In this document: positions 7,007 to 63,733 of the stretch, piece by piece
Position numbering within the stretch: the first letter of the stretch is position 1
Layout: each line of letters begins with the position of its first letter
Assembly: GCF_030684315.1 (NCBI RefSeq)
Contig: NC_081392.1
Coordinates: 7,981,113 to 8,045,112 of the forward strand
Source: Stegostoma tigrinum
Lineage: Eukaryota
DNA: 64,000 nucleotides
Direction of reading: 5' to 3'
Notes under the pieces: generated by a model
Databases searched by the model: none
What the model saw: the letters and a program-made list of their open reading frames with translations, nothing else
What the model was told of the DNA's origin: nothing
Made by a program: the position numbers and the translations under genes

Positions 7007-7787
7007 TCAACCGACAAGAAGATCCATTAGATTTTCCAACTCAGTAATATCTGTCCGGCTGTTGTGGGGTTTCGCCGAAGGGGTGCCTCGTGAAGCTTTG
7101 ATGGGCTGGATAGTGGGACAGGCCCCAGCAGGGAAGCCCTGCTGGACATCATACATTGAGGTGTCAATGTCTTCAAAGATTGCGTCGAGGGAACCGTCGA
7201 TGAGGAAGTCATCCGAGTCAGCAATTTCAAAGGCTGCGAAGATGGAATCGGGGGGCTTGGGCTCCGCCCGGGGATCCGGACTCGCTGGCTTCAGCGGCAA
7301 GAGGTGGTCATCTTCGGGAGAAGCTTGGTCTGGAGGGGGGCTCAGGTCCTCCACAAAGTCCAGGTCCTGAAGGATGGTGGAGATGGCAGAGGACAATGAA
7401 CTGTCGTTACCAGAGAGGAGACAGAAGGGTGGCTCCGTGAGGCTCGGCGATGGTGCCCTGGCAAGGTTATTGTTTAGGTCAGTGATCTCCTCTCCCATCT
7501 TGGAGACAGGTTGGCTGGTGGGTTTCTCAGGTGGCGGCAGTGGCATCTTGTTGAGCATCTCATTGCGGCCATTCTCCCAGTGGACCTCCGCTTGCAGCCT
7601 GCGCAAGGTATTGGCGATCAGCACTGAGCGGTGTAGGTTGCGCTCAGCCAGAACACAGTTCTGGTGCAATTTAAGCAGTGAGATGTCCAGCAGCGTGCCG
7701 CAGTGGAAGGTTTGTGGGGTGCATGCTGCTGCAGTCTGCCCATCGTCTTCGTGGCGTTTCCGCTTCACTCCTTTACCCAACGGAAAA
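7007..7787 (-). CDS. SERTA-domain transcriptional co-regulator, gene A (SERTAD1-like position); coding exon begins at acceptor 7787, start codon unresolved
   Basis: Open frame: LGKGVKRKR basic N-terminus, SERTA domain LLDISLLKL...ERNLHRSVLIANTLRRLQAE, SLSSAISTIL, FEDIDTSMYD, C-terminal ELENLMDLLVG*. Acceptor tttttgttttgcgcag|T at 7789/7787. No in-frame ATG before codon at 7558. Confidence 0.9.
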
Positions 7788-7859
7788 CTGCGCAAAACAA
7801 AAAGACACTAATCAACCCTCAGAATAGAAAATGCTAAAAAAAAGTCCTCACCAGGATCA

Positions 7860-20804: not shown

Positions 20805-21730
20805 AATTCATTTTTATAAATGACTTTGATGAGGAATTGGAAGGGTGGGTTAGTAAGTTTGCCGATGACACAAAGGTTGGTGAAGTTGTGGACAGCGTGG
20901 AAGTTGCAAGGGGACATTGACAGGATGCAGAGCTGGGCAAAGAGGCAGATGGAATTCGACCCAGGAAAAGTGTGAAGTAATTCATTTTGGAAATTCAAAT
21001 TTAAAAGCAGAATATAGGGTTCATGGTAGGATTCTTGGCAGTGTAGATGAACAGAGGGATCTCGGGGTCCATGTCCATAGATCCCTCAAAGTTGCTACCC
21101 AAGTTGATAGGGTTGTAAAGAAGGCGTATGGTGCATTGGTTTTCTTTGGCAGGGAGATTGAGTTTAAGAGCCACGAGGTTATGCTGCAGCTCTATAAAAC
21201 TCTAGTTATAGACACTTGGAATATTGTGTTCAGTTCTGGTCACCTCATGATAGGCAGTATGTGGAAGCTTTAGAGAGGATATTTATCCGGATCCTGCCTG
21301 GACTGGAGGGCAGATCTTATGAGGAAAGATTGCGGGAGCTAGGGCTTTTTCCCATTGGAGTGAAGAAGGACAAGAGGTGAATTGATAGAGGTGTACAAGA
21401 TGACGAGAGGCATAGATAGTGGATAGTCAGAGACTTTTTCCCAGGGTGGAAATGACCATTATGAGGGGGCATAATTTTAAAGTGGTTGGAGGAAGGTATT
21501 GGAGAGATGTCAGAGGTCGGCTGTTTACACAGAGTGGTGGGTGTGTGGAATGTGCTACCGGCAGTGGTAGTGGAGGCAGATACTTTGGAGACTTTTAAGC
21601 AACTCTTAGATAGGCACATGGAGGGTAGTAAAATGTAGTCTTATGCAGGGTACTTTGATCTTAGCAAGATAATAGATCAGCACAACATCATGGGCCTAAG
21701 GGCCTGTACTGTGCTGTATTGTATGTTCAT
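20805..21730 (+). mobile_element. CR1/HER1 LINE RT C-terminus and 3' end, frameshifted
   Basis: FINDFDEELEGWVSKFADDTKVG; KCEVIHFG...EQRDLGVHVHRSLKVATQVDRVVKKAYG. Confidence 0.9.
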
Positions 21731-35925: not shown

Positions 35926-36759
35926 TCAGGAGCTGACCAGGATCTCCATGATGTGATCCAGGTCATTCAGGTCAGTCCTTGAATTTGCATTGGCTCCCAG
36001 TGAAGAAGAGGAATTGCATGAGGTGAAAGTCTTAGCCAGGTCATCGGCCACACCAGGGGGCACTGTTCGGCCACTGGGAGCCGGCCCCACTGTAGCCACA
36101 TCGCAGTCACACACAGAGGTGTCAATGTCAAGAAAAAGGTCATCCAAGGTAACACCTACAAGGTAACTGGAGCTCATGATTTCAAAGCTGCCAAACACAG
36201 ACTCCAAAGGTCTACAGGGCTCTGAGGGCTGGATTTCCTCTTTATCCCAGTCTTCTGCCATTGTGTCCATTGCTTCTGGCATGTCTAGATTGTCTTGTGG
36301 GTTTGATGGTGAAGGGCTTCCATCAACAATGATGTCAAGGTCCCGGAGGATGGAGTTGATGGCAGAGGAGAGGGAGTGGTCCTCATCAGAGGTAGCAGAC
36401 ATAAAGTCCTCAAGGCCATCACTGAATCCAGCAGGGTGGCTCTCTGTCGTCAGCCTTGATGGTGGGGCATCCCGCTGGCTGCCAGATTCCAAACACCCAG
36501 AATCCAAGGTCATGGCAGATGCCAGTTGGCTGCTCTCCAGCCGGATCTCTTCCTGGATCTGCCGCAGGGTGTTAGCAATCAGTACAGTGCGCCGAAGGCT
36601 GAGCTCGGGCAGAGCCCGCCCATTCTGCATCTTATTCAGTGAGGTATTGAGTACCAGCTGCCTCTTGAGGCTGTAGGACTCTGGACAGTCAGCAAGGTTC
36701 TGACAGGAATCCAGACCCCCATCGGCATGGCGTTTCCGCTTCACACCCTTTCCAACCAT
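35926..36759 (-). CDS. SERTA-domain transcriptional co-regulator, gene B, 277 aa (SERTAD3-position / SERTAD2-like sequence)
   Basis: Acceptor cctttatcttggcag|GTCTCA ATG at 36759; MVGKGVKRKR, SERTA domain RQLVLNTSLNKM...LRRTVLIANTLRQIQEE, LDDLFLDIDTS, C-terminal DLNDLDHIMEILVSS*. Confidence 0.93.
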   Translation of the reverse strand: MVGKGVKRKRHADGGLDSCQNLADCPESYSLKRQLVLNTSLNKMQNGRALPELSLRRTVLIANTLRQIQEEIRLESSQLASAMTLDSGCLESGSQRDAPPSRLTTESHPAGFSDGLEDFMSATSDEDHSLSSAINSILRDLDIIVDGSPSPSNPQDNLDMPEAMDTMAEDWDKEEIQPSEPCRPLESVFGSFEIMSSSYLVGVTLDDLFLDIDTSVCDCDVATVGPAPSGRTVPPGVADDLAKTFTSCNSSSSLGANANSRTDLNDLDHIMEILVSS

Positions 36760-42352: not shown

Positions 42353-44825
42353 ATAAGGATGAGATTAAAGAATATTTGGAAGTGCACTGTAAAATAGGGT
42401 GGAGTCAGCACAGCTTTGTCACGGGGAGGTCATGCCTGACAAATCTGATGGAATTCTTTGAATAGGTAACAAGCAAGTTAGACAAAGGAGAGCCAGTGGA
42501 CAAGACGTAATTGGATTTCTAAAAGGCCTTTGAAAAGGTGCCACATAGGCTGATAAATAACACAAGAGCCTTGAGTTATTTAAGGGCAAGGTTACTGGTA
42601 TGGATAAAGGAGTGACCGACTGGCAGAAGACAAGGAGGTATAAAGTGGACATTTTCAGGATGGCAGCTAGTGACTAGTGGAGTCCACAGAAGTCCAAGCT
42701 GGGATCACACCTATTCACATTATACATTAACGATCTGGACAAAGGAACATGCTGCTAGGTTTGCGGATGACACAAAGACAGGTGGAGGAGCAAGAAGCGC
42801 TCAGAAAATGGGGTGGCTGAAGAAGGATTTAGACAGGCTAGGAGAGTGGGCAAAGGAGTGGCATATGGAATAGAATGTGGGAAAGTATGAGGGTATGCAT
42901 TTTGGTGGAAGAATAGAGACACAGTCTATTTCTTTTACCCTGCTTGTGATGGTCTTACATTTGTTTGGGGTTTGCCCTCTGGAAAATGCACCCTATACAT
43001 TTCTGCCTTAGACATACGTCTTTGCCACTGCGTTTTCATTTGAAGTTTGCCATGCCTCAACTAGGTCTGTTAATGTATTGCACAGCAACATAATGAGGAG
43101 GAAAGCCTTTTGGCCGGAGTGACATGCTCAATACCTAACTAGTTTGTGTGGAAAATTTCTTTTGATGCAAAAGATATCACATCCAGAACCTAAGAGCTAG
43201 AAAGTATGTTATACATTACCAGCCTTAACAATCTGGACAAAGGAACTGAGGGCATTGTGGCTTAATTTGCAGACAACAGGTTGAGGAAGCCAGGAGGCTG
43301 CAGAAGGACCTAGACAGGCTGGGAAAGTGGGCAAATAAATGGCAGTTGGAATACAATGTGGAATAGTGTGAGGATTTGCATTTTGGTAGGAAGAATAGAA
43401 ATGTAATCTATTTGCTAAATGGAAAAAGAATTTGGAAATCTGAAGCACAAAGGGTCTTGGGAGTATTAGTTCATGATTCTCTTAAGGTTAACATGCAGTT
43501 TCAGTTGGTAGTCAGGAAGGCAAATGCAATGTTAGCATTTATTTCAAGAGGACTAAAATACATCTGCAGAAAAGTACTACAGAGGCTGTATAAGGCTCTG
43601 GTCAAACTGCATTTGGAATATTGTAAGCAGTTTTGGGCCATGAATATTCCCAGGGACAAACAGCTTGTCATATGAGGAGCTGTTCAGGGTTTGTACTCCA
43701 CAAGAGTTTAGAAAGTTGAGGGGGAATCTCATTAAAACTTACAGAACACAGTGGCCTGTGTGGAGGTAGAGAAGATGTTTCTACTAGGCATTGAATGTAC
43801 TTATGACAGAGATAGATGGATTTTTGATAGGTTAGGGGATCAAGGGTTATTGGCAGAAGTTAGGAGAATGGGGTTGAGAAACATATCAGCTGTGATCAAA
43901 TGGCAGAGCAGATTTGAAAGGCCAAATGGCCAATTTCTGCCCCTATATCATATGGTTAGTGGCCCAGAGCATTCAAGATCAGACTCAGTCAATCACTGAA
44001 ACTACCATGGGTGGTCAATCCCTATAAATAAGGGTACAGGTTTTCAAATCCCATCATGATAGATCAAAGATCTGGAACTGACCATGTTAAAAAAAAATCT
44101 GGAAGTAAAATTTGTGGCAGTAAAGGGAGCTCATAAATTTATGTATTTTTGTAACATCCAACCTGGGTTGGTATTTCAGGGAAAGAAACCAGACATCTGG
44201 TCTATTCTCATGTAGCTTAAGACAATAAGAAGCCACAGTAATAGACATATGGCCTTTTGAGTCTGCTGCACCATTTGATGACCATGACTGATCTATGGCC
44301 TCAATACCACCTTTCCCAAACATATTTCTCAATTCTGAAATTGAAAAAAAAAACATCCACACAGTCCTAAATATATTCAATTCTGGTGCAGTTGGTTGTG
44401 GGCAAGTGTGTGGGTGAGGGTGCGGGAGGTAGAATTATATAGATTCAAAATCCCAAGTGAAGAAATTTCTCCTCACTCAGTCCTAAACGATTATCCTGAA
44501 ACTACAAATCCATATTTAAAAAAACCTCTGTGTCAAACCCTTTCAGAATCTTGTTTCAATGAGATCAAAAACTTCAGAAAATGTAGGCTAGTTTACTCAG
44601 CCTCTCATGGAACAACTTTGATGCGCCACGAACCAAACTAAAAATTTATATTACAAAATAACTAACAAAAGGATTGTCTTCAGAGAAGAAGCTAGACCTT
44701 TATCCTCTGTGGTTCATGAAGAATCAGAGGTGATGTAATTGAAATATTTAGGATCCCAAGGGGACGTGATTAGGTGAATGTGCAAAGAATGATTCCTCTT
44801 GTGGAGAATGAGGGAACTAGAGACA

Positions 44826-46737: not shown

Positions 46738-47049
46738 AAATACAGCCAATTTCACTGGTGCTTCCTTATCAAAATAGCACCAAGGGGTCTTTCACATTTA
46801 TCTGAAAAGGATTGCTGCAAACAGTGCAACACACCCCTCACTACAGGAGAATAATCTCGTCACCTTTCATCAGTCAACATAACTGCAGACTCTAAAACAC
46901 GGTCCACCTTACACGTAGGCTCCTGAAAACGCTGCATTGACAAAATGTATGCATTAAAACGATCGAACATTCACAGTGCCATCATTATCTGAACAACCCC
47001 AGCTCAAACTGAATTTAAAAAGAAACCCTGACACCACTTCCCACTGAAG

Positions 47050-48332
47050 GCATGCCCACCTCTCCGAGGCACGGCTCGCGGTGCATTATGGAGCTTGTAG
47101 TTCGTCGGGTGTGAATGAACCCGGCGGTCCTACGGCGCGGCAATTATTAGCGGTTCGGAGCCAATCGGCACATCCAAACATCTCGCCTTGGATGGTCACC
47201 TTACAACTACCTCCGTAAAAGAAAAAGGCAGTCTTCACTTCTAAAGAAGAGGCAGCTCAGTGTCTTGAGGCGCATGCGCGTTTGTGCCACCGAGAACTTT
47301 CGCCGCTCCACCCCCTCGCCCCCCTACTTTCCACCCTGCAAAAGGTGGGATTGTTGGGGTAACAGGACTGCCCCCCACGCTCCCCGGGAATCCACCCTTT
47401 CCGGAGAGACACCTTCTATGAAGCCAGCTACTTCAGCGCATAATTCCTGACCTCGGCGATGAAAAACGGTCACTTCGAAGCCGCCGTGTAACGGGCGCCC
47501 TGAGCGGTACAGCAATCAAATTATATTAAAAAAACTCGCCGGGAGTGGGTCGCTACCTGCTGATTTACTCGGACGTGACTATTTGTTTAAATTATAATCC
47601 GATCATCACAGTAGTTGGACACGGTTTTCGCTCCTTATCGACTCCCGACCGCCATAACGTGCCCATTCCCCGCCGAGTTAATTCTTCATGTTTTTCTGGC
47701 CCGCCCTCCCCCACTCCCGCCCTCCCCCTCCTTCTCCTCCTCCTCCTCCCGGCCGCCGCACTCGGGGCAAATCAAGACACTGGCTCGAGGTACCAGCCCC
47801 GCGAAGCTGGTCCTATTTGCCGGGCGTTGAGAGGCGTAGACCTATCGGGAAACGGGGACTGCTCATCCTGCTCTTACGATTGGCAAATAGTGCCGCCCAT
47901 CATCTAGACGGCCGTGGGGTCCATTGATAGACAGCCCGCTCGCCCAATAGCCGTCGCGTCTACCTTGGCGGGGTGGACCGAAAAACTTGGTTTGAAAACC
48001 CCAGGAAATCAAACGTTTTGCGGGGCGAGGTGGGGGTTTAAAATGCCGAGTGCTCACTTTGGAGGGAATTGATGCTCGACCGTGTGTAATCCGCTGTCGA
48101 ATGTGAGTGACCGACGTTGAGAAGGCCATTTTTGAAACGTATTTTTAACCCTTGTTGCTACGCTACGGGAGAGGCCGGTTGTGATTGGCAGAGCGCCGGG
48201 AACAGTATCGGCCAATGGCGGTGGAGATGTTTGTATCACGTTTCAATGACGTGACGGGTGTGGAGTGTGCGGCGGGTGGAGGAGATACCCTTAGGGACTT
48301 GAGTGGGCGGGGCCGGCACTGTAGGCGGGGCG
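47050..48332. promoter_or_regulatory. Bidirectional CpG-island promoter: SERTAD-B first exon(s) (minus) and thioredoxin-like gene 1 (plus)
   Basis: Dense CpG; ZNF143-like site 47083-47102, NRF1 GCGCATGCGC 47270-47279, several CCAAT boxes, TTGGCGGG, TTTGAA; minus-strand donors CAG|GTAGCG (47557) and AAG|GTGACC (47200). Confidence 0.75.
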
Positions 48333-48701
48333 ATGGGCGAGGTCAAGACCATCAAGTGTGTGGTAGAGTATGAGGCAGCTTTGCGGGAGAGTGAGCAGCG
48401 CCTGGTCGTAATGCTCTTCGCCGCGCACTGGTGCGAGTTCTGCCAGATGATTCAGCTATACTTCGACGAGTTCGCCGAATCCTATCCGGAGGTTGCCTTC
48501 TACGAGGTGGACATCAACGTGGCCAAGGATGTGGTGCAGCGTTGCCGCATTGAGTGGTTCCCCACTTTCCAGTTCTACAAGACTGGTGTTAAGATCTTTC
48601 AGTTCAAGGGACCTAACCGCTGCCTCCTGGAGCAGATGATTCAAAAGCTGCAGGGAGATGCATCACAGTGTACGCCTAAATTAAAGCAGGCCGATACCTA
48701 A
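48333..48701 (+). CDS. Intronless thioredoxin-like protein 1, 122 aa, active site WCEFC
   Basis: gcgATGG start; LVVMLFAAHWCEFCQMI...FYEVD...FPTFQFYK.G.K...F.G.N aligns with the TXN fold; ~15-aa C-terminal extension; ATTAAA 48836-48841 and AATAAA 49312-49317 downstream. Confidence 0.85.
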   Translation: MGEVKTIKCVVEYEAALRESEQRLVVMLFAAHWCEFCQMIQLYFDEFAESYPEVAFYEVDINVAKDVVQRCRIEWFPTFQFYKTGVKIFQFKGPNRCLLEQMIQKLQGDASQCTPKLKQADT

Positions 48702-49399
48702 GGGTTATCTTGTCTGTGTTTTGCTTTTTCTCCTTTTAAGAGTAGTCTCAGAGATTTTAACGGCATAGAATATGAACCCCACAATTCATCTGTCTTTTCC
48801 AATCCCATTCTCTAGCACTTGGCCAGTAGTATTTAATTAAAACTCATCAATATTTGCTATCTGAGAGAAAAGTTACATTTTTCCAGCAAGTTTGACAGTG
48901 TCTAAAATAATAATTGGTACCAAGCAAACTTGAAGTTAAGACATAATCCCGGACATTCTATTCCAAAGTACAGAGCTGGATTTATCATTTACAAGTAGGC
49001 TTTGACAGTGGGTTTAATTTATGTGCTCAATGACATGAATAGAAATATTTTTCCACTTTGAATACTCAGCAATGATCGATCCCAGGTCAGGTTTAGCCCA
49101 GTTAAGGACCAATCAAAAGCTGCTTTATTGTTTGTATTTTAGATATTTTTAATCAAAGTGTTCGGACATACTGTTACACATGTTCAGAGCAGGTGGCATA
49201 TGAACCAGTGCCTTCTGGTTCGGAGGCAGGGTCGCTACCACTGAACCACATTGTATACTTTTGAAACGCGTGTATTTTTCGTTGTTAACATTAGCGCTTT
49301 TACAGTGTGGGAATAAAAAGCTCATTTTGTTCAAGCTGGCCCGAAGGAAACAGGCGCTCGTGTGACTCCAAGATTGATGTGAGAGAATAACCCTTTGAT

Positions 49400-51730
49400 T
49401 TCAGGGTCACCCGTACTGGGGAAATTGTAGTTGCATTGTTGGAATAGTCTTCAGCATAACTTACTGGGACCAGTGTGCTGGTGCGTCACAACTAGGCCAG
49501 TAGAGAGGACTTTAAATTAAATAGCGGGGGAGAAGGATCAAGTTAGGAAAGATTCTATAAGTCAAATGGAGAAGATAAGGCAAAAGAGCATGGCAGCAAT
49601 TAAGTAAATTGTATCAGAACATGATAGGAAGGGATAGTGTGCTAATCTAGGAGTGTTACAGTAGGAAGGACTAAAGAATAGAAAATAGTAAAAAGATAGA
49701 ACTAAAGCTTCAAAGCTGAATGCACATGGCATTTGTGACAAAACATGATTTTGCATCTCAAGTAGAAATAAGTAATCATTACAGAGACATGGTTACAAAA
49801 TTTCAAAAAACGGGGCATGCATACTCATAGTTTATGACATTTGGCAGGAAACTAGGTAAAGATGGAGCGAGCAATTGTTCTGTTAATAGTACCAACACTA
49901 TTCTTAATCAGGAGAGATGATCTTAGTTTTGGATGTTAGGGTGTAGACCTGGATAGAGATGAGAAATGGGAAAGGTAAAGAAGTCACTTGTATCAGTAGC
50001 TTATGGGTATCCTAACTGTGACCACACTTTTGGGCAGGGGTTACAGGATTAGATAATTGGTGCTTATGAGTAGGGTATGGTGAAAATTGTGGGTGATTTT
50101 TAACCTTCATCTAGATTGAATTAATGGCAAGGGTAGCCTGAATGGTGAGTTCATAGAGAGTTTCATGACAGTTTCTTAGAACAGCATGTTCTAGAGCTAA
50201 CCAGAGAACAGACAATGCTAGACCAGGTAATGTACAATGAGACAATATTCATTGATGACCTCAGACTAAAGGTATTCAGGGTGGCAAAGACCAAATTTCC
50301 CATTTGGTTTGAGGGAGGAAAGAGTGGACCCAAGACTGGTATTTTAAACTTAAGGACAAACTATAGGAGCAATTATGACAACAGAGCTGGCTAAAGTGAC
50401 TAGAAACTTAAGTTAAGGGATAGGTCAGAGATATTCGGTGGTAGGCTGCTTCAAATGCTATTTCAATATACTTGAAAATGTACTTTTAAATCAGAAAGAA
50501 TGATTGTAAAAGATAGATCTTTGGATAACTATGGAAGCTAAAGATAGCCTTAAATGGAAAGACCTCTGCAAAACTGAGTGGCAGGTCAGAAGATCAGACA
50601 TATATAAAGAACACTAAAAGACTATTCAGGAGGGAGAAATTAGAATTTGAGAGAAAGGTGGCTAGAAATATAACAACTGATTGTAAGAACACTCTAGGCA
50701 TTTAAAAAGCAACCTAAGTTAGCTGAGTGTTGGTCCTCTACAGAGTGAATTTGAGGAATTAATAATGAAAAATAGGGAAATTGTGCATGAATTGAACAGA
50801 TATTTTGTGTATTCACTATATATGATAATAAGATGCAAATAATATTGCAGAAATAATCAGGTAATTGTTTGTGAAAGGGAAGTCATGTTTGATAAATTTA
50901 ATGGAGTTCTTTGAGGAAGTAAAGTCAATATATATAAACAACAACCAGTAAATGCACTGTACTTAGATTTCTAGAAGGCATTTGACAAGGTGCCACATCA
51001 AAGGTTACTTTGCAATGTTTAAGATCATGGTGTAGGCAGTAACAATATTAGCATTGATAGAGGTGTTGCTCAGCTAATAGGAAACAATAGGAAACAATAA
51101 ATGGACATTTTTACGTTGTCAAAACGCAATGAACGTTGTAGCACAAGGACCAGTGTGGGACTTCAACTCTTTCATGGGATACTGGAATTTTTAGACAATA
51201 TTTTAGAGATTTGTATTGCTAAAGGATAGCTATTGTTAAATTGAAAGGATGCAGAAATAATTATGATGATATTGACAGAGTTGGAGGGTTTGAGCTATAG
51301 GGAGAGGCTTAATAGGCTAAGGCTATTTTCCCTGGAGTATCAAAGGTTGGGAGGGTGATGTTATAGAGGTTTATAAAATCATGAGGGACGTGGACAGGGT
51401 TAAAAGCTAAGATTTTTTTCCCAGGGTGGGGGAGTCCAAAACTAGAGGGAATATGTTTAAGATGAGAGGCAACTATATAAAGGGACCAAAAGGGCAACCT
51501 TTCCAGTCAGAGGGTGGTGCATGTATGAAATGAGTTGCCAGAGGAAGTGGTGGAGGCTGGTACAATTACAACATTTGAAAGGCATCTGGATGGGTGCATG
51601 AATAGGAAGGGCTTAGAGAGAGATGGGCCACATGGTGGCAAATGAGACTAGATTAATTTAGGATATGTGGTTTGCATGGACAAGTTGGACCAAAGGGTCT
51701 GTTTCCTTTCAGTATTCCTCTCTGACTCTA
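49400..51730 (+). mobile_element. Long degraded CR1 (endonuclease, RT fragments, 3' end)
   Basis: ctgaatgcacatggcatt, ggtgattttaaccttcat, ttagatttctagaaggcatttgacaaggtgccacat (LDF.KAFDKVPH), young 3' end 51280-51730. Confidence 0.8.
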
Positions 51731-53069
51731 TTTCTTGACAAAAAATATGAATCATCAGGTTTACTAATGAATGTCATTTCTACATCTGAGTATGACTGAG
51801 CAAACTGTATGATTTAATCTTTACTCCTTCCTGCCGACACCATGTGTGACGGCAAACTACCTGTCTATGAACAATTGCCTTGTTTTATTTACATTGTGTT
51901 CTTCAGATGGCATTTCCAGACGTCATCTTTATTACAGTAAGTTGGGAATTGCTATTGTAGATTTAGTGACTGTGATCATTTATGCCAGGCACTTTCCATT
52001 CTTATAGTGAACACTGTTAAAAAAAAATACTCTTGGGGCTCATTTGATTATGTGCTATCCAACAGCTCATTTTTAGGAGATGACATCTCTCACAAGGCCA
52101 GCATTTCTTCTTGCCTATCTCTGTTTTCTCTTGGAACACCTCAGACCATTCTATGCTGTGGGGTGACGGTGCCTCCATGCCCTATTAGGGAGCTCTGAGT
52201 TTTTGACCTAGTGATGGTGAAGGAATGTTGATACATTACCAGGTCAGGATTGTGTGCGGTTGGAGAGAAACCTGGTGGTGTTCATATGATCTGCTTACTT
52301 TGTCCTTCTAGGTCTTGAAGGTTGAGAGTTTGGGAAGGGCGATTGAATGTCACTTGGCAACTTCCTTCCCAAGGCTGGGTAAATAGACTCGCTGTCCTAA
52401 TGTCTTCTGCCTGCTGGGAGCTGATCTCTCCCATGGTCCTTGACAGTGTCTGGAAACTGGCTGCTGATGTATCCAGCATCTCAAAGTGCCTGCCCATCTG
52501 TGCATATCAAGATTTTCTACTGAGTATACTGCAGCAGCAGTACCCATCTGTGACCTCCCTCTCTATCAGCTGGCAAGGGAAACCCCATTCCTGGCTGTAA
52601 CCCACTTATACCTGAATGACTGCGTACTGAACCCAACTTATGACCACCTTCCAGGCTGCATGCAGTGCCAATATTTGATCTGGTGGCTTGAGAGGCTGAG
52701 TAGCCTACTTCTCCTATTTCTAATGTTCTCTGATCTGCTCAGAGTATTAGGATCAGACACCAAAGGATCAGTAATATGAATTTTCAGGCAGACAAAATCA
52801 AATAAAATTATAATCTGATCAATTATGTGTATTGTTTTTGTTAAAATTGCTTCACAAAAAATTAAATAACACAGTGATGCTCTGAAACAATTTTCATAAA
52901 TTCCACATATCAGATAACACATTGAAGTAGTCAGGGTAACATGGATTGGGTAGGGTGTATGAAGACATTGACCGTCACATGCAGACAGTCCTGAAGGATT
53001 GCTGCACTGTCAGAGGTGCTGCCTTACAACATAGAACACGTATGCTTTCAAAGGTGGATGTAAACAATT

Positions 53070-53366
53070 TCATAGAATCCCTACAATGTGGGAGCAGGCT
53101 ATTCAGCCCATACCAACCCTCCAAAGAGCAACCCACACAGACCCCCTCCCATACCCTATCCCTATAACCTGCATTTCCCATGGCTTATTCACCTAGCCTG
53201 CACACCCCTGGACACTGTGGGAAATTTTGCATGGTCAATCCACCTAACCCTCACGGAGATGGGAAGAATGTACAAACTCCACACAGACAGTTGCCCAAGG
53301 CTGTAATCAAACATGAGTCCTTACTGTTGTAAGGCAGCAGTGCTAGTCACCGAGCCATTGTGCCAC
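53070..53366 (-). mobile_element. HE1-type SINE
   Basis: catagaatccctacaatgtgggagcaggc...gcagcagtgctagtcaccgagcc. Confidence 0.85.
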
Positions 53367-53449
53367 GCAGTACTCCATGGGACTCTTTCAAATAAATGGT
53401 TTAAACAACATGCCTGAAAGCATGCACCAAATGTATTATCAAGGAAAAA

Positions 53450-55280
53450 GGAAGGACACAGTACAGGAGCTGGTTAATATATGGATGGGAATTAGAAAAA
53501 CAATCTGAGTCTATAGAACAGGCAGCTTAATGCCAGTAGGAGGAAAAGTGCTGGAGTATGTACTAAAAGAGTACTAGATGAACATGTAGGGACTACAGAA
53601 ACAATAAGAAATATAGCACACATTCCAAAAGGCATGCTAACTGACTTGATTTAAATTTCTGAAAGGATAACAAGAAGTTTAAAAAGGGCAATGCAGTAGC
53701 TGTCATATATTGGATTTTCCAAAGGTTATTAGAAAGGTACTTTATGGCAAGACCTTGAGAAAGGTTAAAGTGCAAAGATAGTCAGCTAAATAGACAGCAA
53801 ATTGTCTAAAAAGCAGAAAACGGTAAGCAGGAGTAAAGTGTAGTCATTTAGTTCAGAGGAAAGTAGAAAGAGATGTTCCACACAATCAACAGAAGGACCA
53901 CTTATGTTCATAATTTACATTATTCGGTTGGATTTGGTAACAAACAACTCAATACTTATTGATATGGGGTTGGTGGGAGGTTTAGCTAGTACTCAGAAGA
54001 TACAAGAAGAATTAGGACATTTGCATGCTAGAATTAAGTAGCAGATTCAGTGTTAATATAGAAATACAGGTTATGGGTTTGATTAAAAAAAATAAAAAGA
54101 CCAAGCCTCGAGGAAAAACAAAACTTAAAGGGATGAATGAGCAAGGCAAACACGAGGAAAAAATGAACAAATTATTATGAGGTTAGCAAAGCTATTAAAA
54201 ATGCTAACCAAGTATTGGAGATTGCTTTCGAGTGTTAAACATTTCCAAACTAATGAAGTTGTATTAATATGATTGTTTGCAATTAGAATTCACAATCTGT
54301 TCTCCATACTATTAAAAGGATATGGAAGCATTGGAGAAAGTGAAAAAAATTACAATGATGGTACCAGAACTGATAAGTATGTTTATGTGGAAGTTTTAAC
54401 AGGGTAGGACTGTTTCTTTAGAAATTCAAAGATGTACAGAATTTAAAATTATGTATGATTGGATATTTTATGAATGATAATTTTATATATTAATTATTTT
54501 ATTTTTATTAATGATTTATATTTTAATAGGTGCATAGTATAAAAACAAGGAGCTGACGTTGAACTTGTACAAGACACTAGTTAGATCTCAACTGGAGGTC
54601 CGGTTCTGGAGGCACATGATAGTGAGGATGTGAACATATTAGAGAAAGTGTAGAAGTGATTTACAAGAATGATTCCACGGAGAAATTTCAGTTATGATGA
54701 TAAATTGAAGAATTTGGGACTTTCTCCCAGGAGAGAAGGCCGAGAGAAGATCTGATAGAGGTTTTCAAAATCATGCTGGAGCTTGGTAGAGTAGCTACGG
54801 AGAAATTGTTCCCGCTCATAAAAGGGTCAACAACTAGACATTTGAAGACTTAGATTTAAAGTAAACAAAGTGATTGTGAGGCAAGGAACAAAACACTTTT
54901 TGCACTGTGAGTGGTTAGGATATGGAATATCAGAGATAATGGGATATGGAATATGCTGTCTTGAAATGTGTTAGAAACAGGTTCAATTGAGGCAGTCAGT
55001 AGGTTATTGTGTGATCATTTGGATAGAAGTAATGTGCGAGAGCATGTGGAAAAACCAGATTGACAATGGATAATGACATTCATTTGAAGAGCTGGAGCAG
55101 ACATGAGGAGCTGAATGGAAGTGACCAAGGCAAATCATTTAAAAGCTTTCCATAAGAGACTAGATGAGTACACGAAAGAAAGGAGAATAGAAACATGTGC
55201 TAAAAGCATGCTGAATATGGAATAGAAGGTATAGGTAGACAGTATATCAAACAAGTAAAAAGTATTTGGCTTGTTTCTGT
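53450..55280 (+). mobile_element. Old, AT-drifted CR1 RT fragments
   Basis: atattggattttccaaagg, ttgtacaagacactagttaga, gatctgatagaggttttcaaaatc. Confidence 0.6.
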
Positions 55281-55929
55281 GCTAAGAACAGGAGAGTTCT
55301 CCTGGTGTCCTGGCCAATATTTGTCCTCAACTAAAAGCTGAAAAGATTAATTGATATAAAAACAGAAAGTGCTGGACAAACTCAGCAGATTTGACGGCAT
55401 CTGTGGAGATAGAAAGAGTTAACGTTTCTAGTCCAGTATGAGTCTTCCTCAAATTAATTGATCATTGTCTCCTACGTAAAACACTGTGAATGCAAGAAAT
55501 ACGGATGCATATCACGCAGCATCTGTGGAGAGAGAAGCATAATTGAGAAGTTTGGGTTCATTAACCCTGACTCGGTCATTACAGCTATTTCTAACTAACT
55601 TCTTCAGGCAGTTTTGTCATGTTGGGAAGCATGCCTTGAACCCAAGTTTCACGTCTCAGAGGTAGGGAAAGGACCAGTGCACCACATAGTACCATGAATG
55701 AATTGCTTTAGGTATTTTGTTTTGGTATTTTAATCAACCTGTCCAGGTGTAGTACTACTCATCTCTTGGGCAGGTGCGACTTGAACCCTTGTCTCCTGGC
55801 TCAGAGGTAGAGACATTACCCTTACACCACCGGAACCTCAACAGATCATTAGTTCACTGATATTTCACTGAATCTGTCCGGTGCAAATTCAGATCCGCTG
55901 ACTCTGATCCTTTTGAATAGAATTGTGGT

Positions 55930-56156
55930 GGCTGCGAAATCGCCGTGATGGACCTTCTGATAGGCTGCTTGCGCCGTCAATCAACCCCATTCTAGCCAAT
56001 GGAGCTGATATCTTTCCGACCCATCCATGAAAAGGTAGCAAATTGTAGCGGCCAATGAGAATCAGCCAATGGGATGTTGACGTCGATCTTCGTCACAACT
56101 GGGTGCGGGTTTGAGGGCGGGGCCAGTGGGAAGGTGGGCACGGACCCGGAAGCAGC
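55930..56156 (+). promoter_or_regulatory. CpG-rich promoter of thioredoxin-like gene 2
   Basis: CCAAT at 55996, 56052, 56066; TGACGT 56078-56083 and CGTCA 56091-56095; GGGCGGGGCC 56115-56124; CCGGAAG 56146-56152. Confidence 0.7.
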
Positions 56157-56474
56157 ATGGTGGTGAGACACGTGGAGGACGCCAAGCAGTTCCAGAACCT
56201 GTTGAGCCAGACCGAGCAGCTGGTTGTCGTCATGTACTCGGCCGAGTGGTGTAGCAACTGCCGCATGATCCGGCCGCATTTCTACAACCTCTCCGAGCAG
56301 TTGACCAACATCGTCTTCGTGGAGGTGGATGTCGACGACGCGGAGCCGCTCGCTCGGTCCGCTGGCATCACATGCATGCCCACCTTCCACTTCTTCAGGC
56401 GCTCGGCCAGAATGGGAGAGTTCTCGGGGACCAAGAGGGAGAAGTTGGAGCGCCTACTGGACGAACTGCAGTGA
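56157..56474 (+). CDS. Intronless thioredoxin-like protein 2, 105 aa, active site WCSNC
   Basis: agcATGG start; LVVVMYSAEWCSNCRMIRPHF...FVEVDVDDA...CMPTFHFF...GEFSG..REKLE aligns end to end with 105-aa TXN; AATAAA at 56557-56562. Confidence 0.9.
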   Translation: MVVRHVEDAKQFQNLLSQTEQLVVVMYSAEWCSNCRMIRPHFYNLSEQLTNIVFVEVDVDDAEPLARSAGITCMPTFHFFRRSARMGEFSGTKREKLERLLDELQ

Positions 56475-57061
56475 GCGGCCTGTTAGAAATTTAGAAAAAA
56501 ATAGACAGGGAAAAACGAAAGCCCAAAAAAAACCTGGAGTTTGAATTCTCTGGATTAATAAAAGTGCAGCTAAAAATATATAACCAGAGAAAGTAAGGGA
56601 GGCAGTTTTCAAAATTCATCTTTGGAATGTGCCCGTCACCTTCTCCAAACAGTGATTATGGTGGATTTTGATGGCTATTTCAGACAGTAGTTAAGAGTCA
56701 ATCACAACAGTTGTGACCACCAATGGGATTTTGGAAGTTTTGTATTGTACAGGGAATCTGGCACATTATTTTGGATCAGGACTGGTTTAGAGTGGAGCTT
56801 GCAGTATATGTTTTAAAAGAGCTAACATTTATATGGCATCTTTCACATTTTAAGGAGGTATAATTGAACCATATCAGCTGCAGCTGAATAGTGGCATTCT
56901 AACCTCTTTGTGTCAGAAGGTTGTGGTTTCAAACACCATTCTATAGAAAATCCAGGAAAATTCTGCAGTTACAGCACCAAGAGTGATGCACCATCAGAGG
57001 TTCCAATATTTGGGTTGAGAACAATACAAGATATCGGCTCCCCTCTTGGCTAGCTGATGGA

Positions 57062-57870
57062 ACATTAGAACATTACAGCACTGTACAGACCCCTTCAGCC
57101 TTCGATGTTGCACCGACCTATGAAACCAATCTGAAGTCCATCCAACCTACACTATTCCATTATCATCTGCATGTTTATCCAATGACCATTTAAATGCCCT
57201 TAAAGTTGGCGAGTCTACTGTTGCAGGCAGGACATTCCATGCCCTTACTGCTCTCTGAGTAAAGAACCTACCTCTGACATCTGTCCTATATCTATCACCT
57301 CTCAATTTAAAACTACGTCCCCTCGTGCTAGCCATCACCATCCAAGGAAAAAGGCTCTCACTGTCCACCCTGTCTAATCCTCTGATCATCTTGTATGTCT
57401 CTATTAAGTCGCCTCTTAACCTTCTTCTCTCTAACAAAAACAGGCTCAAGTCCCTCAGCCTTTCCTCATCAGACCTTCACTCTGTACCAGGCAACATCCT
57501 GGTAAATCTCCTCTGCACACTTTCCAATGTTTCCACATCCTTCCTATAATGCAGCAACCAGAACTGTATGCAACACTCCAAGTGTGGCCGCACCAGAGTT
57601 TTGTACATTTGCAACATGACCTCATGGCTCCAAAACTCAATCTCTCTACCAATAAAACCTAACACACCGTACGCCTTCTTATTAACCTTATCAACCTGGG
57701 TGGCAATTTTCAGGGATCTATGCACATGGACACCGAGATCTCTTTGCTCATGCACACTACCAAAAATCTTACCATTAGCCCAGGACTCTGTATTCCTGTT
57801 ACTCCTTCCAAAGTGAATCACCTCACACTTTTCCGCATTAAACTCTATTTGCCTCCTCTCAGCCCATCTC
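57062..57870 (-). mobile_element. Young CR1/HER1 3' fragment
   Basis: IHFGRSN...EQRDLGVHVHRSLK...YKTLVRPHLE..QFW; LERRRLRGDLIETYK...FFTQR; (gaacatta)n tail. Confidence 0.92.
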
Positions 57871-60022
57871 TGGGAAAGATCCCATTGCGCTATTTTGAGG
57901 AAAAATAGGAATGATCTTTCAAGTGTCCTGGCTGATACTTATCCCTGAACTAATACCAATAATGTGCAGTTGCTGGTGTTGGACTGGGGTGGACAAGGTC
58001 AGCAATCACCCAACAGTAGGTTATAGTCCAACAGATTTATTTGAAAACACAAGTTTTTGGAGCCTCAGTCCTTCTTCAGATGGTAGTATTTGAGGTAGTA
58101 TCAGACACAGAATTTAGAAGTAAAGATCAAAGGTTTACACGATGGATGAAGATGTACTAAATCTAAGATGCTATTAAATCTTTATATGTAAATCCCCGAA
58201 TTCCTTTCAAGCCATGGTCCTGAGGGAATTAGAGGTTTTATCAGTGTAAAAAAGAGGTGACATTTTACGTCAGATGATACAAGTTAGGTGTGATGCCTTG
58301 TTGGCAATCTGTTTGTGTTTTAGTTCGGAGTCAGACTGGTTTTATTCCTAAAGTGGGAATGTATAAAACACGACATTGACTGACTGTCTATAAATTGTGT
58401 ACTTTTCGAACAAAATAAAATGTATCTGCAAATACAAATTTACCCATAGATTCACATGTGTGTGTGTCTGTCTGTGAGAGAGAGAGAGAGAGACTTGACA
58501 GACTTTGTGTGGATGAGAGAGGATCTGTCTAAGTGTATGTATGTGTGTGTGTGTGAGAGAGAGTGTACAGTGAGGTGGGGTCACCTGTAGTGCGACACAA
58601 ACCCAAGATCCCAGTTGAGACTGTCTTCAATGGTACTGAACCTGGCTATCAGCCTCTGCTCAGCGACTCTGTTGTGTATCCTGAAATCTGCTTTGGAGCA
58701 CGTTTAGCCCAACATCCGAGCACGAATGCCCTTGACTGCTGACGTGTTCCCCCAGTGGGAGGGAACATCACTGTCTGGTGATTGTTGCACAGTGTCCATT
58801 CATCCATTGTCATTGTGTCTGCATGATTTTGCCAATATACCATGCCTCAAGACATCCTTGCCTACAACATATGTGATAGACAACATTGGCCGAGTCATGT
58901 GTATCTGCCATGCACATGGTGGGTGGTATTCCATTGTGTGATGGTAGAGTCCATGTCGAAGATCTGACATGTTTTGTAGAGGTTACCATGACAGGGTTGT
59001 AGGACGTAATGATCGATATTGTCCTGAAGTCTGGGTAGTTTGCTGTGAACAATGGTTTGTTTAAGGTTAGGTGGTTGTTTGAAGGCAAGAAGTGGAGGTG
59101 TGGGGAAGATCTCGGTGAGATGGTCATCATCATCGATAATGTGTTGAAGGCTACAAAAAACATGGCATAGTTTCTCTGCTCCCGGGAAGTACTGGACAAC
59201 AAAGGTACCCTATTGCATGTATCCCTTATCTGAGCAGGTCATTATGGAATTTTGCTGTGGCACTTCGGAACTGGCGATCGATGAGTTGAGCATCGTATTG
59301 GCCTTGTTGATCTTTAAGGGACCATATTCTGTTCCTACTTATTCTTTTGCCCTTAATTTACTTGGAGAATATCTTTGGATCCTCCTGTACCCTATCTGCC
59401 AAAGCTGTCTCAGGTCTCCCTTTTGCCTCCTGATTTCCCTCAAGTGTACTCCTACACTCCCTATACTCCTCAAGAGTTTCCCTTGAATCTAGCTGTCTGT
59501 ACCCTACATACGCCTCCTTTTTCTTAACCAGAACCTCGATATCTCCAAGTCATCCAGTGTTCCCTACTCCTGCCAGCCTTACCCTCCACACAAACAGGAA
59601 CCTGCTGGCCCTGAACTCTATTATTTTGTTTTTGAAAGCTGATGTGCTTTTCACATTTCATTAACACTTAAGGCAAAAGTAAAACACTACAATGACATCA
59701 TAAATATTTATTTATAGATCTTATTAGTTTTTGGGGTACTGTGCATGACTGGGATCTGAATACCTGCAAGAAGATCTCCGGATATTTTTATGTCCAAGGA
59801 TTTGCCTTCTGACCTGAGCTCATGAGAACTCATCTATCAGTGTTGTGTTGTAAAGTACAGAATACATTATTTATCAAAATCAATATTAGTGATGTAGTGT
59901 CTCAAGTATAATAAAATGCTGGATCATAAATTTTAAGGATTATAAAAATATGGTGAAAGCATGCAAAAACAATTCTTGCTGATATTAGATTTCGTCTGAA
60001 GACTGTCCAAGGTGTATAACAT

Positions 60023-60752
60023 TTGTATACTGCTTCCACTGTACCCGGTGTGGCTGCCTCTACATTGGGGAAACCAAGCGGAGGCTTGGGGACCGCTTTG
60101 CAGAACACCTCCGCTCAGTTCACAATAAACAACTGCACCTCCCAGTCGCAAACCATTTCCACTCCCCCTCCCATTTTTTAGATGACATGTCCATCATGGG
60201 CCTCCTGCAGTGCCACAATGACGCCACCCGAAGGTTGCAGGAACAGCAACTCATATTCCGCTTGGGAACCCTGCAGCCCAATGGTATCAATGTGGACTTC
60301 ACCAGCTTCAAAATCTCCCCTTCCCCCACCGCATCCCAAAACCAGCCCAGTTCGTCCCCTCCCCCCACTGCACCACACAACCAGCCCAGCTCTTCCCCTC
60401 CCCCCAATGCATCCCAAAACCAGTCCAACCTGTCTCTGCCTCCCTAACCTGTTCTTATTCTCACCCATCCCTTCCTCCCACCCCAAGCCGCACCTCCATC
60501 TCCTACCTACTAACCTCATCCCACCTCCTTGACCTGTCCATCTTCCCTGGACTGACATATCCCCTCCCCACCTATACTCTCCTCTCCACCTATCTTCTTT
60601 TCTCTCCATCTTCGGTCCGCCTCCCTATTAATTCTAGAACCCTCACCCGATCCCCCTCTCTGATGAAGTGTCTAGTCCCGAAATGTCAGCTTTTATGCTC
60701 CTAAGATGTTGCTGGGCCTGCTGTGTTCATCCAGCCTCACATTTTATTATCT
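60023..60752 (+). mobile_element. 5'-truncated young Penelope-like element (second family), open GIY-YIG frame, 10-bp TSD
   Basis: tgtataacat at 60013-60022 and 60753-60762; 60025-60447 reads VYCFHCTRCGCLYIGETKRRLGDRFAEH...RRLQEQQLIFRLGTLQPNGIN without stops; pLTR with CTGATGA...GAAA at 60660-60683. Confidence 0.88.
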
Positions 60753-60994
60753 TGTATAACATGGGTATTTTATGAATTAAATGTTCCTGGGGCATGGATG
60801 TTGCAAGCAAAAGCCATTACTAACTGCCTTTTGAGAAGGAAATGTAAGTCACCATCTTGACAATGGAATGATTTGCTGGGCTATTTGAAGCGAGTTGAGA
60901 ATTAATTTGTAAAGTTCTATTTTGTTGACAGTTCTGAAAGCCTTCATGAGATTCACAGTATCCTGTTCTCTACACTATTCTTGTAGCAGACCGA

Positions 60995-61379
60995 TGGAGA
61001 TATCTTCAAAGAGGTTTATAAAATCTGAGGGGCATGGATAGGGTGAATAATCAAGGCTTTTTTCCCCAGGGTAGGGGAGTCCAAAACTTAAAGCTAAGTC
61101 CTCTTGGTGAGTGAGGAAAGATTTACAAGGAACCTGAGGGGCAACTTCTTTACAGAGTCGTGTTTGAATGGAATGAGCTGCCAGAAGAAGTGGTAGAGAC
61201 AGGTACAATTATAACATATAAAAGGCATCTGGATGGGAACATGAATAGAAAGGGTTTAGAGCGATATGGGCCAAATGCTGGAAAATGGAACTAAATTAAT
61301 TTAGGATATCTGGTCAGCGTGGACGAGTTGGACCAAATGGTCTGTTTCTGTGCTATACATCTGACTGACTGAATGAATT
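60995..61379 (+). mobile_element. CR1/HER1 3' end
   Basis: agaggtttataaaatc...ggggagtccaaaac...gggcaacttcttt...ggatatctggtcagcgtggacgagttggacc. Confidence 0.8.
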
Positions 61380-63123
61380 CTGTTCCTGTGAGGGCGTCCT
61401 TTAACACCTTCAGGTGTCCATCTTGTTTTTCCTTATCCAAACAGATGCTCTGTATGTGTAGGGATTGTCCATAGGAGATGGCTGTTTCAATATGTTTCGG
61501 GTAGAAGCTGGAGAAGTGCAGCATTGTCAGGTTATCCATAGGCTTGTGGTAGAGTGATGTACCACATCTGTCCCTGATGGAGATGCATGTGTCCAAGAAT
61601 AAGACTGAAATTTGTTGATATCACTATGTAGGTGTTTCAGTGATTCCTCGCCATGAGTCTAAAGGAAGAAAATGTCATCAGTTTGTCTGGTGTACAGCAT
61701 TGATTAGAGGTTCTGTACAGCAAAGAAGTCTTGTTGGAACCTGTGCATAAAAGTATTTGCATACTGGGGAGCAAATCTGGTCCCCATGCCTGTTCCATGC
61801 ATCTGGATGAAGAACTGGTTGTTGAAGGTGAGGAGGAAGTGATGAGTTGCAGGATGGCGCCTGGAAATTGGCAGTTGGTGGTATTGATACTGAGGTTGTT
61901 GCAGTGATGCTGTCCTCATGGGGGATGCTGGTGTAGGGTGCTGAAACATCCATTGTGATAAGGATGTTCCTGGTTTGATTGGTCCATGGATGTTGAGTTA
62001 AGAAACCTGTAATGTCATCGCAGAAGCTGGGGGTTCCCTGTACAATGGGTTTCAGGATGCCCTTGACATTGCCAGAGAGGTTCTCACACTGGGTCCTATT
62101 GCCTGATACGTTGGGACATCCAGGTGTGTTGGCTTTGTGTATTTTTGGAAGGCAGTAGAAGTCCCCTACACAGGAAGTACACAGGATGAGAGTGCGTTGG
62201 GGACTCTGAAGGACTGGATCAAAAGTCTTGACCAATCTGTTCATTGACGGGTGTATTCTTTGGTCGCATTGGCAGGTAGTTGTCTGTAGTGTTCCTAGTT
62301 ACAGTAGTCCATTTTCATGCACCGGCTTGACTTCATTGATACACAAAAAGTCCGATCAGTGCCATACATCAGATACATTGATGACATTTTCTTCTGTTGA
62401 ACTCTCGACGAGGAATAACTGTAACAACTATATAGTTGTATCAGCAAGTTTCATCCCACCATCAGACTTACCATGGATTACACTTCAGAATCAGTCTCGC
62501 TGTTGGACATACACACATCTCTAACAGGGACGACACCTCAGTATATCCCTCAGTACTGGAAGCATATGGATGTCCTCATGATGCTGCACTTCTCTAGCTT
62601 CCACCCAAAACATACTAAAACAGCCATCGCCTATGGACAAGCCCTACACATACACAGGATCTGCTCAGATGAGGAGGATCGAGAAAGACACCTGAAGGTG
62701 TTGAAGGAGACCCTCATGTGAACAGGATATGATGCTCAACTCATCGATCACCAGTTCCGACTTGCCACAGTAAAAAACAGTAATAACCTCCTCAGAAGAC
62801 AGAGACATATCCAAATGGGTACTCTTTATCATCCAGTACTTCCTGGGAACAGAGAAACTACTGTTCTTCGTTGCCTTCAACATATTATCGATGACAATGA
62901 GCACCTTGCCAAGACCTTCATGTCACTCCACAGGTGACCCTTCCACACAATACATTCTCACATACATACAAACTCACTCACACAGACACACACACAGATC
63001 CTCTCTCATACACGCAGTCTCTCAAACCTCTCTCGCTGTCTGTTCCCCCACTTCACACACACACTGTTTCTCTCTCCACACATGCACACACATACTCTCT
63101 CACGCACACATACATTCACTTTC

Positions 63124-63167
<44 letters not shown>

Positions 63168-63733
63168 TTTCTCTCTCCGCACATGCACACACATACTCTC
63201 TCACGCACACATACATTCACTTTCCCTCACACACACACACACTTTCTCTCTCTTCTCCCACCCCCATCCCCAATACACCACAGATATACACATAATCACT
63301 CAGTCTCTCTCTCATAAACAAAGACGTGTGAATCTTTGGGGTGAATTTGTATTTGCAGATACATTTTATTTTGTTCAAAAAGCACACAATTTATAGACAA
63401 TGTGGTGTTTTATAAATTCTTACTTTAGAAATAAAACCAGTATGACTCCAAGCTAAAACACAAACAGTTTGTAAACAAGGCTGCAATGTAACATGCATTG
63501 TCTGACCTAAAATATCATCCCTTCTTTACACTGGTGAAACCATTAATTCTCTCAGGACCATGACTTGAAAGGAATTCGGGGATTTACATAGACATATTAC
63601 TCAATTAAAACCTTCTAACAGATTAAAGATTTAACAGCATCTTAGGTTTGTTTAGTACATTCTCAATCATGGTGTGAACATTTGATCTTTTACTAATAAA
63701 TTCTGTGTGTGGTACTTCCTCACTCACTAACAC

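Follow-up and report, generated by a model that had tools for sequence, protein, structure and literature searches.

Two genes in a 64,000-nucleotide stretch of Stegostoma tigrinum DNA (hereafter the window) belong, together with a third gene outside it, to a real lineage-specific variant of the well-known thioredoxin family, and the sequences of their fixed active sites point to specialised jobs. We refer to the three paralogues as A, B and C. The reading that we favour, and hold to be reasonably probable, is that they are old TXN1 retrocopies that now act as specialised cytosolic dithiol proteins and form a three-gene chondrichthyan cluster. The two members in the window are:

48333..48701, + strand: thioredoxin paralogue A, 122 amino acids, WCEFC at 48429-48443
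56157..56474, + strand: thioredoxin paralogue B, 105 amino acids, WCSNC at 56247-56261 (family motif WCxNC)

Both are unbroken frames from ATG through stop, with starts 7,824 nucleotides apart. The preliminary description of an intact pair of single-exon reading frames 7.8 kb apart therefore holds, with the term single-exon applying to the coding sequence only. Other features that it had read from the letters were borne out by measurement: the mutual identity of about 30% is 31% (32 of 104 residues), codon usage is GC-rich (GC3 of 0.72 in A and 0.88 in B), both ATGs lie in a good start context with a purine at -3 and G at +4, and poly(A) signals follow both frames (AATAAA after B, ATTAAA and AATAAA after A). 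Likewise, the Asp26 column holds Leu in A (48414-48416) and Met in B (56232-56234), and Trp31, Cys32, Cys35 and Pro75 are retained in both. The two proteins score 63.7 (A) and 83.7 bits (B) against Pfam Thioredoxin (PF00085), above the gathering cut-off of 23.5 bits; the domain of A spans residues ~3-107 and is followed by a low-confidence C-terminal tail. A tblastn search of the window for a third paralogue matched A and B alone, and tRNA and Rfam scans of the window gave no match. The flanking DNA of A and B shares a single 83-nucleotide match (E 0.026). Since 7 of 11 four-fold sites differ between the two genes, their dS is not estimable. Predicted models of A and B (pLDDT 88 and 92, respectively) superpose on human TXN1 with an rmsd of 0.6-1.2 Å and a TM score to human Trx1 of 0.94-0.96 (by target length). 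Both proteins are thus predicted to adopt a TXN1-like fold, and the fold match suggests a cis geometry for Pro75.

Relatives of A, B and C occur in 17 named cartilaginous fish species, where they are annotated as 'thioredoxin-like' or hypothetical and nothing more. In the catshark, the orthologue of A is XP_038642163.1 and that of B is XP_038642018.1. The third paralogue, C, mostly carries WCNNC. Among these relatives, locus tags run consecutively, or accessions nearly so, on contigs of equal length, which indicates a conserved cluster. This cluster is old and common to sharks, rays and chimaeras. No members were found outside the cartilaginous fishes, within the limited sensitivity of the search, and our literature search returned no description of the family, in agreement with the initial remark that no vertebrate thioredoxin family with these motifs is known.

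To describe the active sites we used an alignment of 35 family rows (12 of A and 23 of B and C, 12 of them B), 11 canonical TXN rows and 7 TXNDC2 rows. Asp26 and Pro34 are absent from all 35 family rows and present in all 11 canonical ones; position 26 is always Leu, Met or Phe in the family, and Trp31, Cys32, Cys35 and Pro75 are kept throughout (35/35). The replacements for the lost residues differ between A and B/C. Glu33 and Phe34 are invariant in A (12/12), and Asn34 is fixed in B and C (23/23). As no other residue of the motif dipeptide is fixed in B and C, their motif is CxNC; WCSNC, first given as the motif of B, is correct for the window but not as the conserved form. Beyond the changes reported earlier, A is also altered at Pro40, Asp60, Cys73, Met74, Ala92 and Glu95. 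At position 95 it carries an additional Cys, which is invariant, and its fixed aromatic binding face is made of Phe34, Trp73, Phe74, Pro92 and Cys95. B keeps Cys73, Met74-Pro75 and the acidic 56-61 loop.

The conservation of the thioredoxin fold, Trp-Cys-x-x-Cys and Pro75 makes thiol-disulfide exchange via Cys32 and Cys35 the most likely chemistry, and redox activity of the A and B proteins appears quite likely. Exchange without the assistance of Asp26 would yield slower, substrate-restricted redoxins and not general reductases. Redoxins devoid of Asp26 are reported to be active by means of a Ser or Thr four residues before CXXC (PMC3720550), and Ser28 is found in 12/12 rows of B and 10/12 of A (Ala in the A of the window), so catalysis is not necessarily slow where Asp26 is lost. 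These redoxins, NrdH and Cp9/BC3987, are bacterial and glutaredoxin-sized, and hence provide a mechanistic analogy and not close kin of A and B. Regarding recycling, the human substitutions K36E, D60N and Q63R are reported to reduce the affinity for TrxR1 (PMC8189816). A has Gln36 in 11/12 rows, lacks Asp60 in 12/12 and has Lys or Arg63 in 10/12; B keeps Arg36, Asp58, Asp60 and Arg94 in 12/12. This residue pattern suggests coupling to TrxR and NADPH for B and poor coupling for A. B, which retains the charged residues used by human Trx1 to dock on thioredoxin reductase, is probably still reductase-coupled. The residue preceding the cis-Pro is described as tuning redox properties and partner binding (PMC2665069), and it is Phe in 12/12 rows of A. 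Given the loss of three docking charges and the fixed aromatic face, A is probably dedicated to one specific partner and recycled poorly or by another donor. According to PMC6928294, target specificity is poorly predicted by sequence and redox potential; we give the division of labour between A and B an even chance.

The proteins, and A above all, could instead be redox-inactive adaptors or metal or Fe-S binders, for which the thioredoxin fold would serve as a binding platform, with structural or metal-ligating cysteines. The absence of Asp26, Pro34, Pro40 and Asp60 from A and its extra invariant Cys95 would fit, as would the fact that its most conserved part is the C-terminal third, which faces the partner (25 of 34 columns invariant over residues 71-104, and 2 of 20 at the N-terminus). 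The retention of Trp31, both cysteines and Pro75 in every family row makes this alternative unlikely. In particular, the retained cis-Pro (35/35 rows) speaks against metal or Fe-S binding, one of the functions proposed at first, which we discarded as the main reading.

The regions around the two frames contain the following features:

47001..48500, no strand: CpG island over the start of A, CpG observed/expected 0.92-1.11 against a window mean of 0.31
48184..48310, + strand: promoter-like motifs of A (CCAAT at 48184 and 48212, TGACG half-sites at 48247 and 48252, GC box at 48305)
48836..49317, + strand: poly(A) signal candidates of A (ATTAAA at 48836, AATAAA at 49312)
55975..56120, + strand: promoter-like motifs of B (CCAAT at 55996, 56052 and 56066, GC box at 56115)
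55975, 56078 and 56091, + strand: TGACG/CGTCA upstream of B, from the motif scan
56001-56500: small CpG island at B, observed/expected 0.87
56471..56476, + strand: GTGAGC splice-donor-like site, overlapping the stop codon of B
56557..56562, + strand: AATAAA poly(A) signal candidate of B
35926..36759, - strand: coding exon of a SERTA-domain gene, splice acceptor directly before the ATG (context, outside the thioredoxin family)
7007..7807, - strand: coding frame of a second SERTA-domain gene (context)

The promoter scan tried seven motif types, with post hoc counts of CCAAT, CRE and GC boxes, and detected no TATA and no testis-type X-box within 400 nucleotides upstream of A or B. The SERTAD gene at 35926-36759 probably has its first exon head-to-head with A, in the same CpG island. 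The GTGAGC site is placed in a way consistent with the alternative C-terminus that isoform X2 has in Heptranchias (model P0007).

Expression of A and B in the male germ line is a serious possibility, slightly short of an even one. Five family accessions are absent from the catshark semen proteome list as given in PMC11083954 Table S2 (305 + 535 proteins), which counts weakly against abundance in mature sperm. Alternatively, A and B may be somatic, broadly expressed back-up thioredoxins, that is near-canonical reductases whose motif changes are tolerated and not function-changing, suited for example to a urea-rich cytosol or to immune or blood cells. Promoters that lie in CpG islands, lack a TATA box and contain CCAAT and GC boxes are also compatible with housekeeping genes, B retains the canonical residues listed above around Pro75 and in the acidic loop, and redoxins can be active without Asp26. 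However, the invariance of the new residues (Glu33/Phe34 in A, Asn34 in B and C) fits selection for a new state, and sharks still have a canonical WCGPC TXN (P0196, P0075). We regard the somatic alternative as decidedly improbable.

The closest known protein is TXN (human PDB 1ERT/3M9J), which is the best sequence match of A (E 1.7e-22) and B (E 3.6e-30) and their best fold match, is of the same size, and has Trp31, Cys32, Cys35, Asp58, Pro75 and Gly91 in common with them. It differs in being only 37-48% identical to A and B, in the WCGPC and buried Asp26 that both lack, with Gly-Pro replaced by Glu-Phe in A or x-Asn in B, in Ala92, and, for A, in Pro40, Asp60, Cys73 and Met74. In our trees, which contained no TXNDC8 sequence, A forms a clade (support 100/100, stem length 1.15), and B and C form one clade (100/99, stem length 0.76), both with short tips. 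The three do not form a clade in free trees (with 24 rows, 9% of the bootstrap replicates contain this grouping), and the AU test does not reject their single origin (0.311 and 0.289), which at these values is neither shown nor rejected. Thus, of the tandem duplication first proposed, the B/C duplicate pair is clear, within a cluster of three genes, and A and B as sister duplicates are unsupported.

Mammalian TXNDC2 (Sptrx-1) is retro-derived and, similarly to A, B and C, a lineage-specific paralogue derived from TXN1; mammalian TXNDC8 (Sptrx-3) is multi-exon and adjoins TXN. The former has been described as sperm-specific with oxidizing activity, the latter as a germ-line paralogue of TXN that is small and has a single domain. 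A and B might be orthologues of either, and hence part of an old vertebrate family rather than an invention of cartilaginous fishes: the AU test leaves a clade of A, B, C and TXNDC2 standing (p 0.101), and a TXNDC8 cluster comes at rank 12 of the feature search. Nevertheless, the constraint with TXNDC2 costs 12.0 log-likelihood units, compared with 1.7 for grouping A, B and C with shark TXN. TXNDC2 forms its own clade (96/89), with A and B outside it in the free tree, and keeps Pro34 (7/7) and Asp26 (6/7); the two named TXNDC2 proteins (330 and 660 amino acids) have long repeat N-termini, whereas A and B start at the thioredoxin domain. Human TXNDC2 and TXNDC8 have CGPC in PMC6928294 Table 1, in contrast to CEFC and CSNC, and the human redoxins of that table include no CEFC and no CxNC, the small TXN-like paralogues being all CGPC. 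Such orthology is thus very improbable. We do not file A and B under TXN1, TXNDC2 or TXNDC8, and, where examined, they do not fall within an already described family.

Orthologues of the two genes are intact in sharks, rays and skates, none of those examined being disrupted, with shark-batoid identities of 67% on average for A and 77-90% for B. Since we found no neutral shark-ray distance in PMC10587355, we simulated on assumed distances, and both frames of a pair stayed open in 0.5-1% of runs at 0.2 and in 5-10% at 0.1. The idea of processed pseudogenes or drifting copies with frames intact by chance, which the identity of A alone would allow as the neutral expectation at the assumed distance of 0.2, is ruled out for practical purposes by the intact orthologues and by conservation that depends strongly on position, and is further opposed by the simulations and by the identity of B.

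A retro-origin of the cluster appears likely. The vertebrate TXN gene is multi-exon, in contrast to the uninterrupted coding regions of A and B, and in Heptranchias only, the location also differs, the WCGPC-type model lying on a contig of 141.9 Mb and B on one of 17.1 Mb. No A-run of at least seven follows A, and survival of a poly(A) remnant is not expected at such age; two short A-runs after B lie 5' of its AATAAA. Of the old neofunctionalised retrogene first suggested, age, selection, TXN1 ancestry and rebuilt active sites hold, and the retro-origin is plausible on indirect grounds. Most likely, a TXN mRNA would have been retroposed beside the SERTAD CpG-island promoter. Local duplication would have come next, certain for B and C, while A would have arisen either in a previous duplication or as a retrocopy of its own. 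An episode of rapid change at positions 26, 33, 34 and 92, on the active-site face, would have been followed by purifying selection on each gene.

By itself, the cluster leaves the understanding of thioredoxin chemistry unchanged. It provides natural, long-selected active-site variants on the TXN1 scaffold, in which the part played by the CXXC dipeptide, by Asp26 and by the cis-Pro loop in setting redox potential and reductase coupling can be tested. A bolder reading, which we consider unlikely, is that chondrichthyans used TXN retrocopies to build germ-line thioredoxins independently, in parallel with TXNDC2 and TXNDC8. The WCEFC protein would then be a single-domain cytosolic vertebrate thioredoxin uncoupled from TrxR, working as an oxidase or dedicated redox switch on a single conserved partner, which might act in sperm chromatin or flagellum assembly, for instance. 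If testis-specific, these genes would represent an independent vertebrate case of a thioredoxin recruited to sperm.

The preliminary description proposed an old tandem pair of thioredoxin retrogenes with rewired active sites. We found both open reading frames, A (WCEFC) and B (WCSNC), complete and open throughout where they had been placed:

48333-48701, plus strand: ORF A, 122 amino acids, frame uninterrupted
56157-56474, plus strand: ORF B, 105 amino acids, frame uninterrupted

The active-site motifs, the loss of Asp26 (human TXN numbering throughout), GC3, the start contexts and the poly(A) hexamers were all reproduced on re-checking, and the identity between A and B, estimated by eye at about 30%, is 31% when computed. 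Both proteins score above the Pfam thioredoxin cut-off, and the closest solved structure for each is human TXN1. Structure prediction, which had been suggested as a check, returned Trx1-like AlphaFold models for both (pLDDT 88 for A and 92 for B; superposition on human Trx1 at 0.6-1.2 Å), with an extra, low-confidence tail beyond residue 109 in A.

Searches with B and with A retrieved 12 proteins from 15 candidates and 7 from 8, respectively, from cartilaginous fishes in every case. A profile search gave 20 matches from 2,630 candidates, of which 19 belong to the family and the other is a canonical WCGPC thioredoxin from a sawshark. Including cluster members, the family covers 17 named species, spread over sharks, rays and skates as well as Callorhinchus, and its proteins are named only 'thioredoxin-like', 'Thioredoxin', 'thioredoxin domain-containing', hypothetical or uncharacterized. 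Its three paralogues are A, with WCEFC, and B and C, both with WCxNC (usually NN in C); C has no copy in the window. Of the 110 best domain rows rescored from an exhaustive search, those with CEFC or CxNC were all family members, either already known or later named as whale shark; that search covered the best 150 of 45,248 representatives, with lower-scoring members and those hidden in 50% clusters beyond its reach. Since the word-based search passed over most vertebrate TXN1 despite good profile scores, a diverged orthologue could be missed, and the restriction to cartilaginous fishes is limited by search sensitivity. The open-access literature, mostly main texts, on shark and cartilaginous-fish thioredoxins, TXNDC2 retrotransposition, the motifs, and gene or protein identifiers yielded no description of the family, and the accessible part of a human redoxin table lists neither CEFC nor CxNC (PMC6928294), in agreement with the initial statement that no vertebrate family with these motifs was known.

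Consecutive locus tags link C, B and A in Chiloscyllium punctatum (GCC31411, GCC31412 and GCC31413) and B and A in Scyliorhinus torazame (scyTo_0016845 and scyTo_0016846). Hemiscyllium, Pristis, Amblyraja, Leucoraja, Hypanus and Mobula hypostoma all list A, B and C with a longest contig of equal size. We read these data as a conserved gene cluster. Among the relatives recovered, A was not found in Callorhinchus. The B-like protein of this species (record P0008) is a mosaic: its N-terminal half shares 64% identity with B and 36-45% with C, and its C-terminal half is identical to Callorhinchus C, which points to gene conversion or else to a chimeric model. The chimaera lineage nevertheless has B-type as well as C-type sequence. 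Two Heptranchias records (P0075 and P0195) are read-through models in which a WCGPC domain is joined with a diverged second domain carrying WCMPC, which suggests that TXN copies stand in tandem at the shark parent locus as well.

TXN is a multi-exon gene and TXNDC2 a retrogene. We built a tree of 60 rows and 106 columns (12 A, 12 B, 11 C, 12 TXN-type, 7 TXNDC2-type and 6 other thioredoxins) without isoforms, near-duplicates, TXNDC8 and TXN2, in which 3 TXN-type, 5 TXNDC2-type and 5 outgroup rows were labelled by resemblance. P0102, a Chlamydotis record named partial TXNDC2 by its source, was counted as TXN because it groups with sauropsid TXN, and is likely misnamed. A forms one clade (100/100, stem 1.15), B and C another (100/99, stem 0.76); the TXNDC2 rows stand apart (96/89), and the backbone is poorly supported. 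AU values are 0.311 for a constrained A+B+C grouping (0.289 in a 24-row tree), 0.39 when shark TXN is joined to it and 0.101 when TXNDC2 is. Columns 18, 19, 26, 33, 34 and 92 are conserved across 80% or more of the 25 rows outside the family, and 90% or more of the family rows have lost them; at those on the active-site face (26, 33, 34 and 92), the replacements in A differ from those in B and C. Given the adjacency of the genes and their shared losses, one retrocopy followed by tandem duplication would be the likely origin. Against this origin, the A+B+C clade is absent from the free tree, and the AU test only fails to reject it.

Mean identity between sharks and batoids is 67% for A, 83% for B and 75% for C. 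In neutral simulations at assumed distances, both frames of a shark-batoid pair stayed open in 5-10% of runs when the distance was 0.1 and in at most 1% when it was 0.2; the identity of A is not by itself decisive for selection. Invariant columns of A number 25 of 34 in residues 71-104 versus 2 of 20 at the N-terminus, and the long stems and short tips of the tree fit rapid change followed by constraint. We regard the family as real, old and under selection.

For B of Heptranchias, the annotation gives two isoforms, one of which switches to an alternative C-terminus at the point where, in the window, a GTGAGC donor overlaps the B stop codon. As annotated isoform models are usually based on transcript reads, this pair hints indirectly at expression. 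Table S2 of a catshark semen proteome, a list of accessions only (PMC11083954), contains none of five family accessions, A0A401PZW5, A0A401SLZ3, A0A401SM08, A0A401SM12 and A0A4W3GY17 (a set that does not include catshark B), which weakly suggests that family proteins are not abundant in mature sperm. The 'TXNDC2' of that proteome is a different gene, scyTo_0001399.

Two SERTA-domain genes lie upstream of A, a tandem pair that we take to resemble mammalian SERTAD1/SERTAD3 and that offers a synteny anchor for searches in other vertebrates:

35926-36759, minus strand: SERTA-domain gene nearer to A, with a splice acceptor directly before its ATG at 36759
7007-7807, minus strand: second SERTA-domain gene of the tandem

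The acceptor implies that the first exon of the nearer gene sits further up, plausibly within the CpG island (47001-48500) covering the start of A; an island held in common would make the promoter bidirectional. B has a separate small CpG island of its own. The 250 nt before the ATG contain two CCAAT boxes in A and three in B, two and three half-sites of the TGACG type, and a single GC box in either gene; in a post hoc comparison over seven motif types, the counts of A and B are reached in 11% and 2% (CCAAT) and 1.6% and 0.4% (TGACG) of 255 window tiles. The 7.5 kb spacer between A and B holds repeat fragments with copies also elsewhere in the window. Another CpG island (26501-27000, o/e 1.15) contains a strong donor on the minus strand near 26890 and probably represents exon 1 of the second SERTAD gene (7007-7807), and a CpG-rich 2 kb without an assigned gene (17001-19000, o/e 0.62-0.87) is possibly a young repeat. 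Degenerate frames at 20884-21273, 43367-43675, 57147-57938 and 58810-62524 are presumably, by eye, LINE reverse-transcriptase or Penelope-type remnants, and a long low-complexity, (CA)n-rich tract occupies 62774-63396.

Trp31, Cys32, Cys35, Asp58, Pro75 and Gly91 are present in all 35 family rows, and Asp26 and Pro34 in none. B and C have fixed Asn34 and Thr92 with a variable position 33; in A, Glu33, Phe34, Leu40, Trp73, Phe74, Pro92 and Cys95 are fixed in 12 of 12 rows and Asp60 is absent. According to published work, the X-X dipeptide and the residue preceding cis-Pro modulate both redox properties and the binding of partners (PMC2665069), human K36E, D60N and Q63R lower the affinity for TrxR1 (PMC8189816), and Asp26 has been put forward, not without dispute, as the acid/base that serves the buried cysteine, some redoxins being active without it via nearby Ser/Thr (PMC3720550). 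A is naturally changed at all three TrxR1-affinity positions, whereas B is still basic at 36 and acidic at 58 and 60 but has Glu63. The kept Trp31/Cys32/Cys35/Pro75 pattern, together with these published effects, points to A and B as putative specialised dithiol oxidoreductases, B probably coupled to the reductase and A probably dedicated to a single partner. Within the thioredoxin family, the three paralogues represent a lineage-specific variant rather than a new kind of system.
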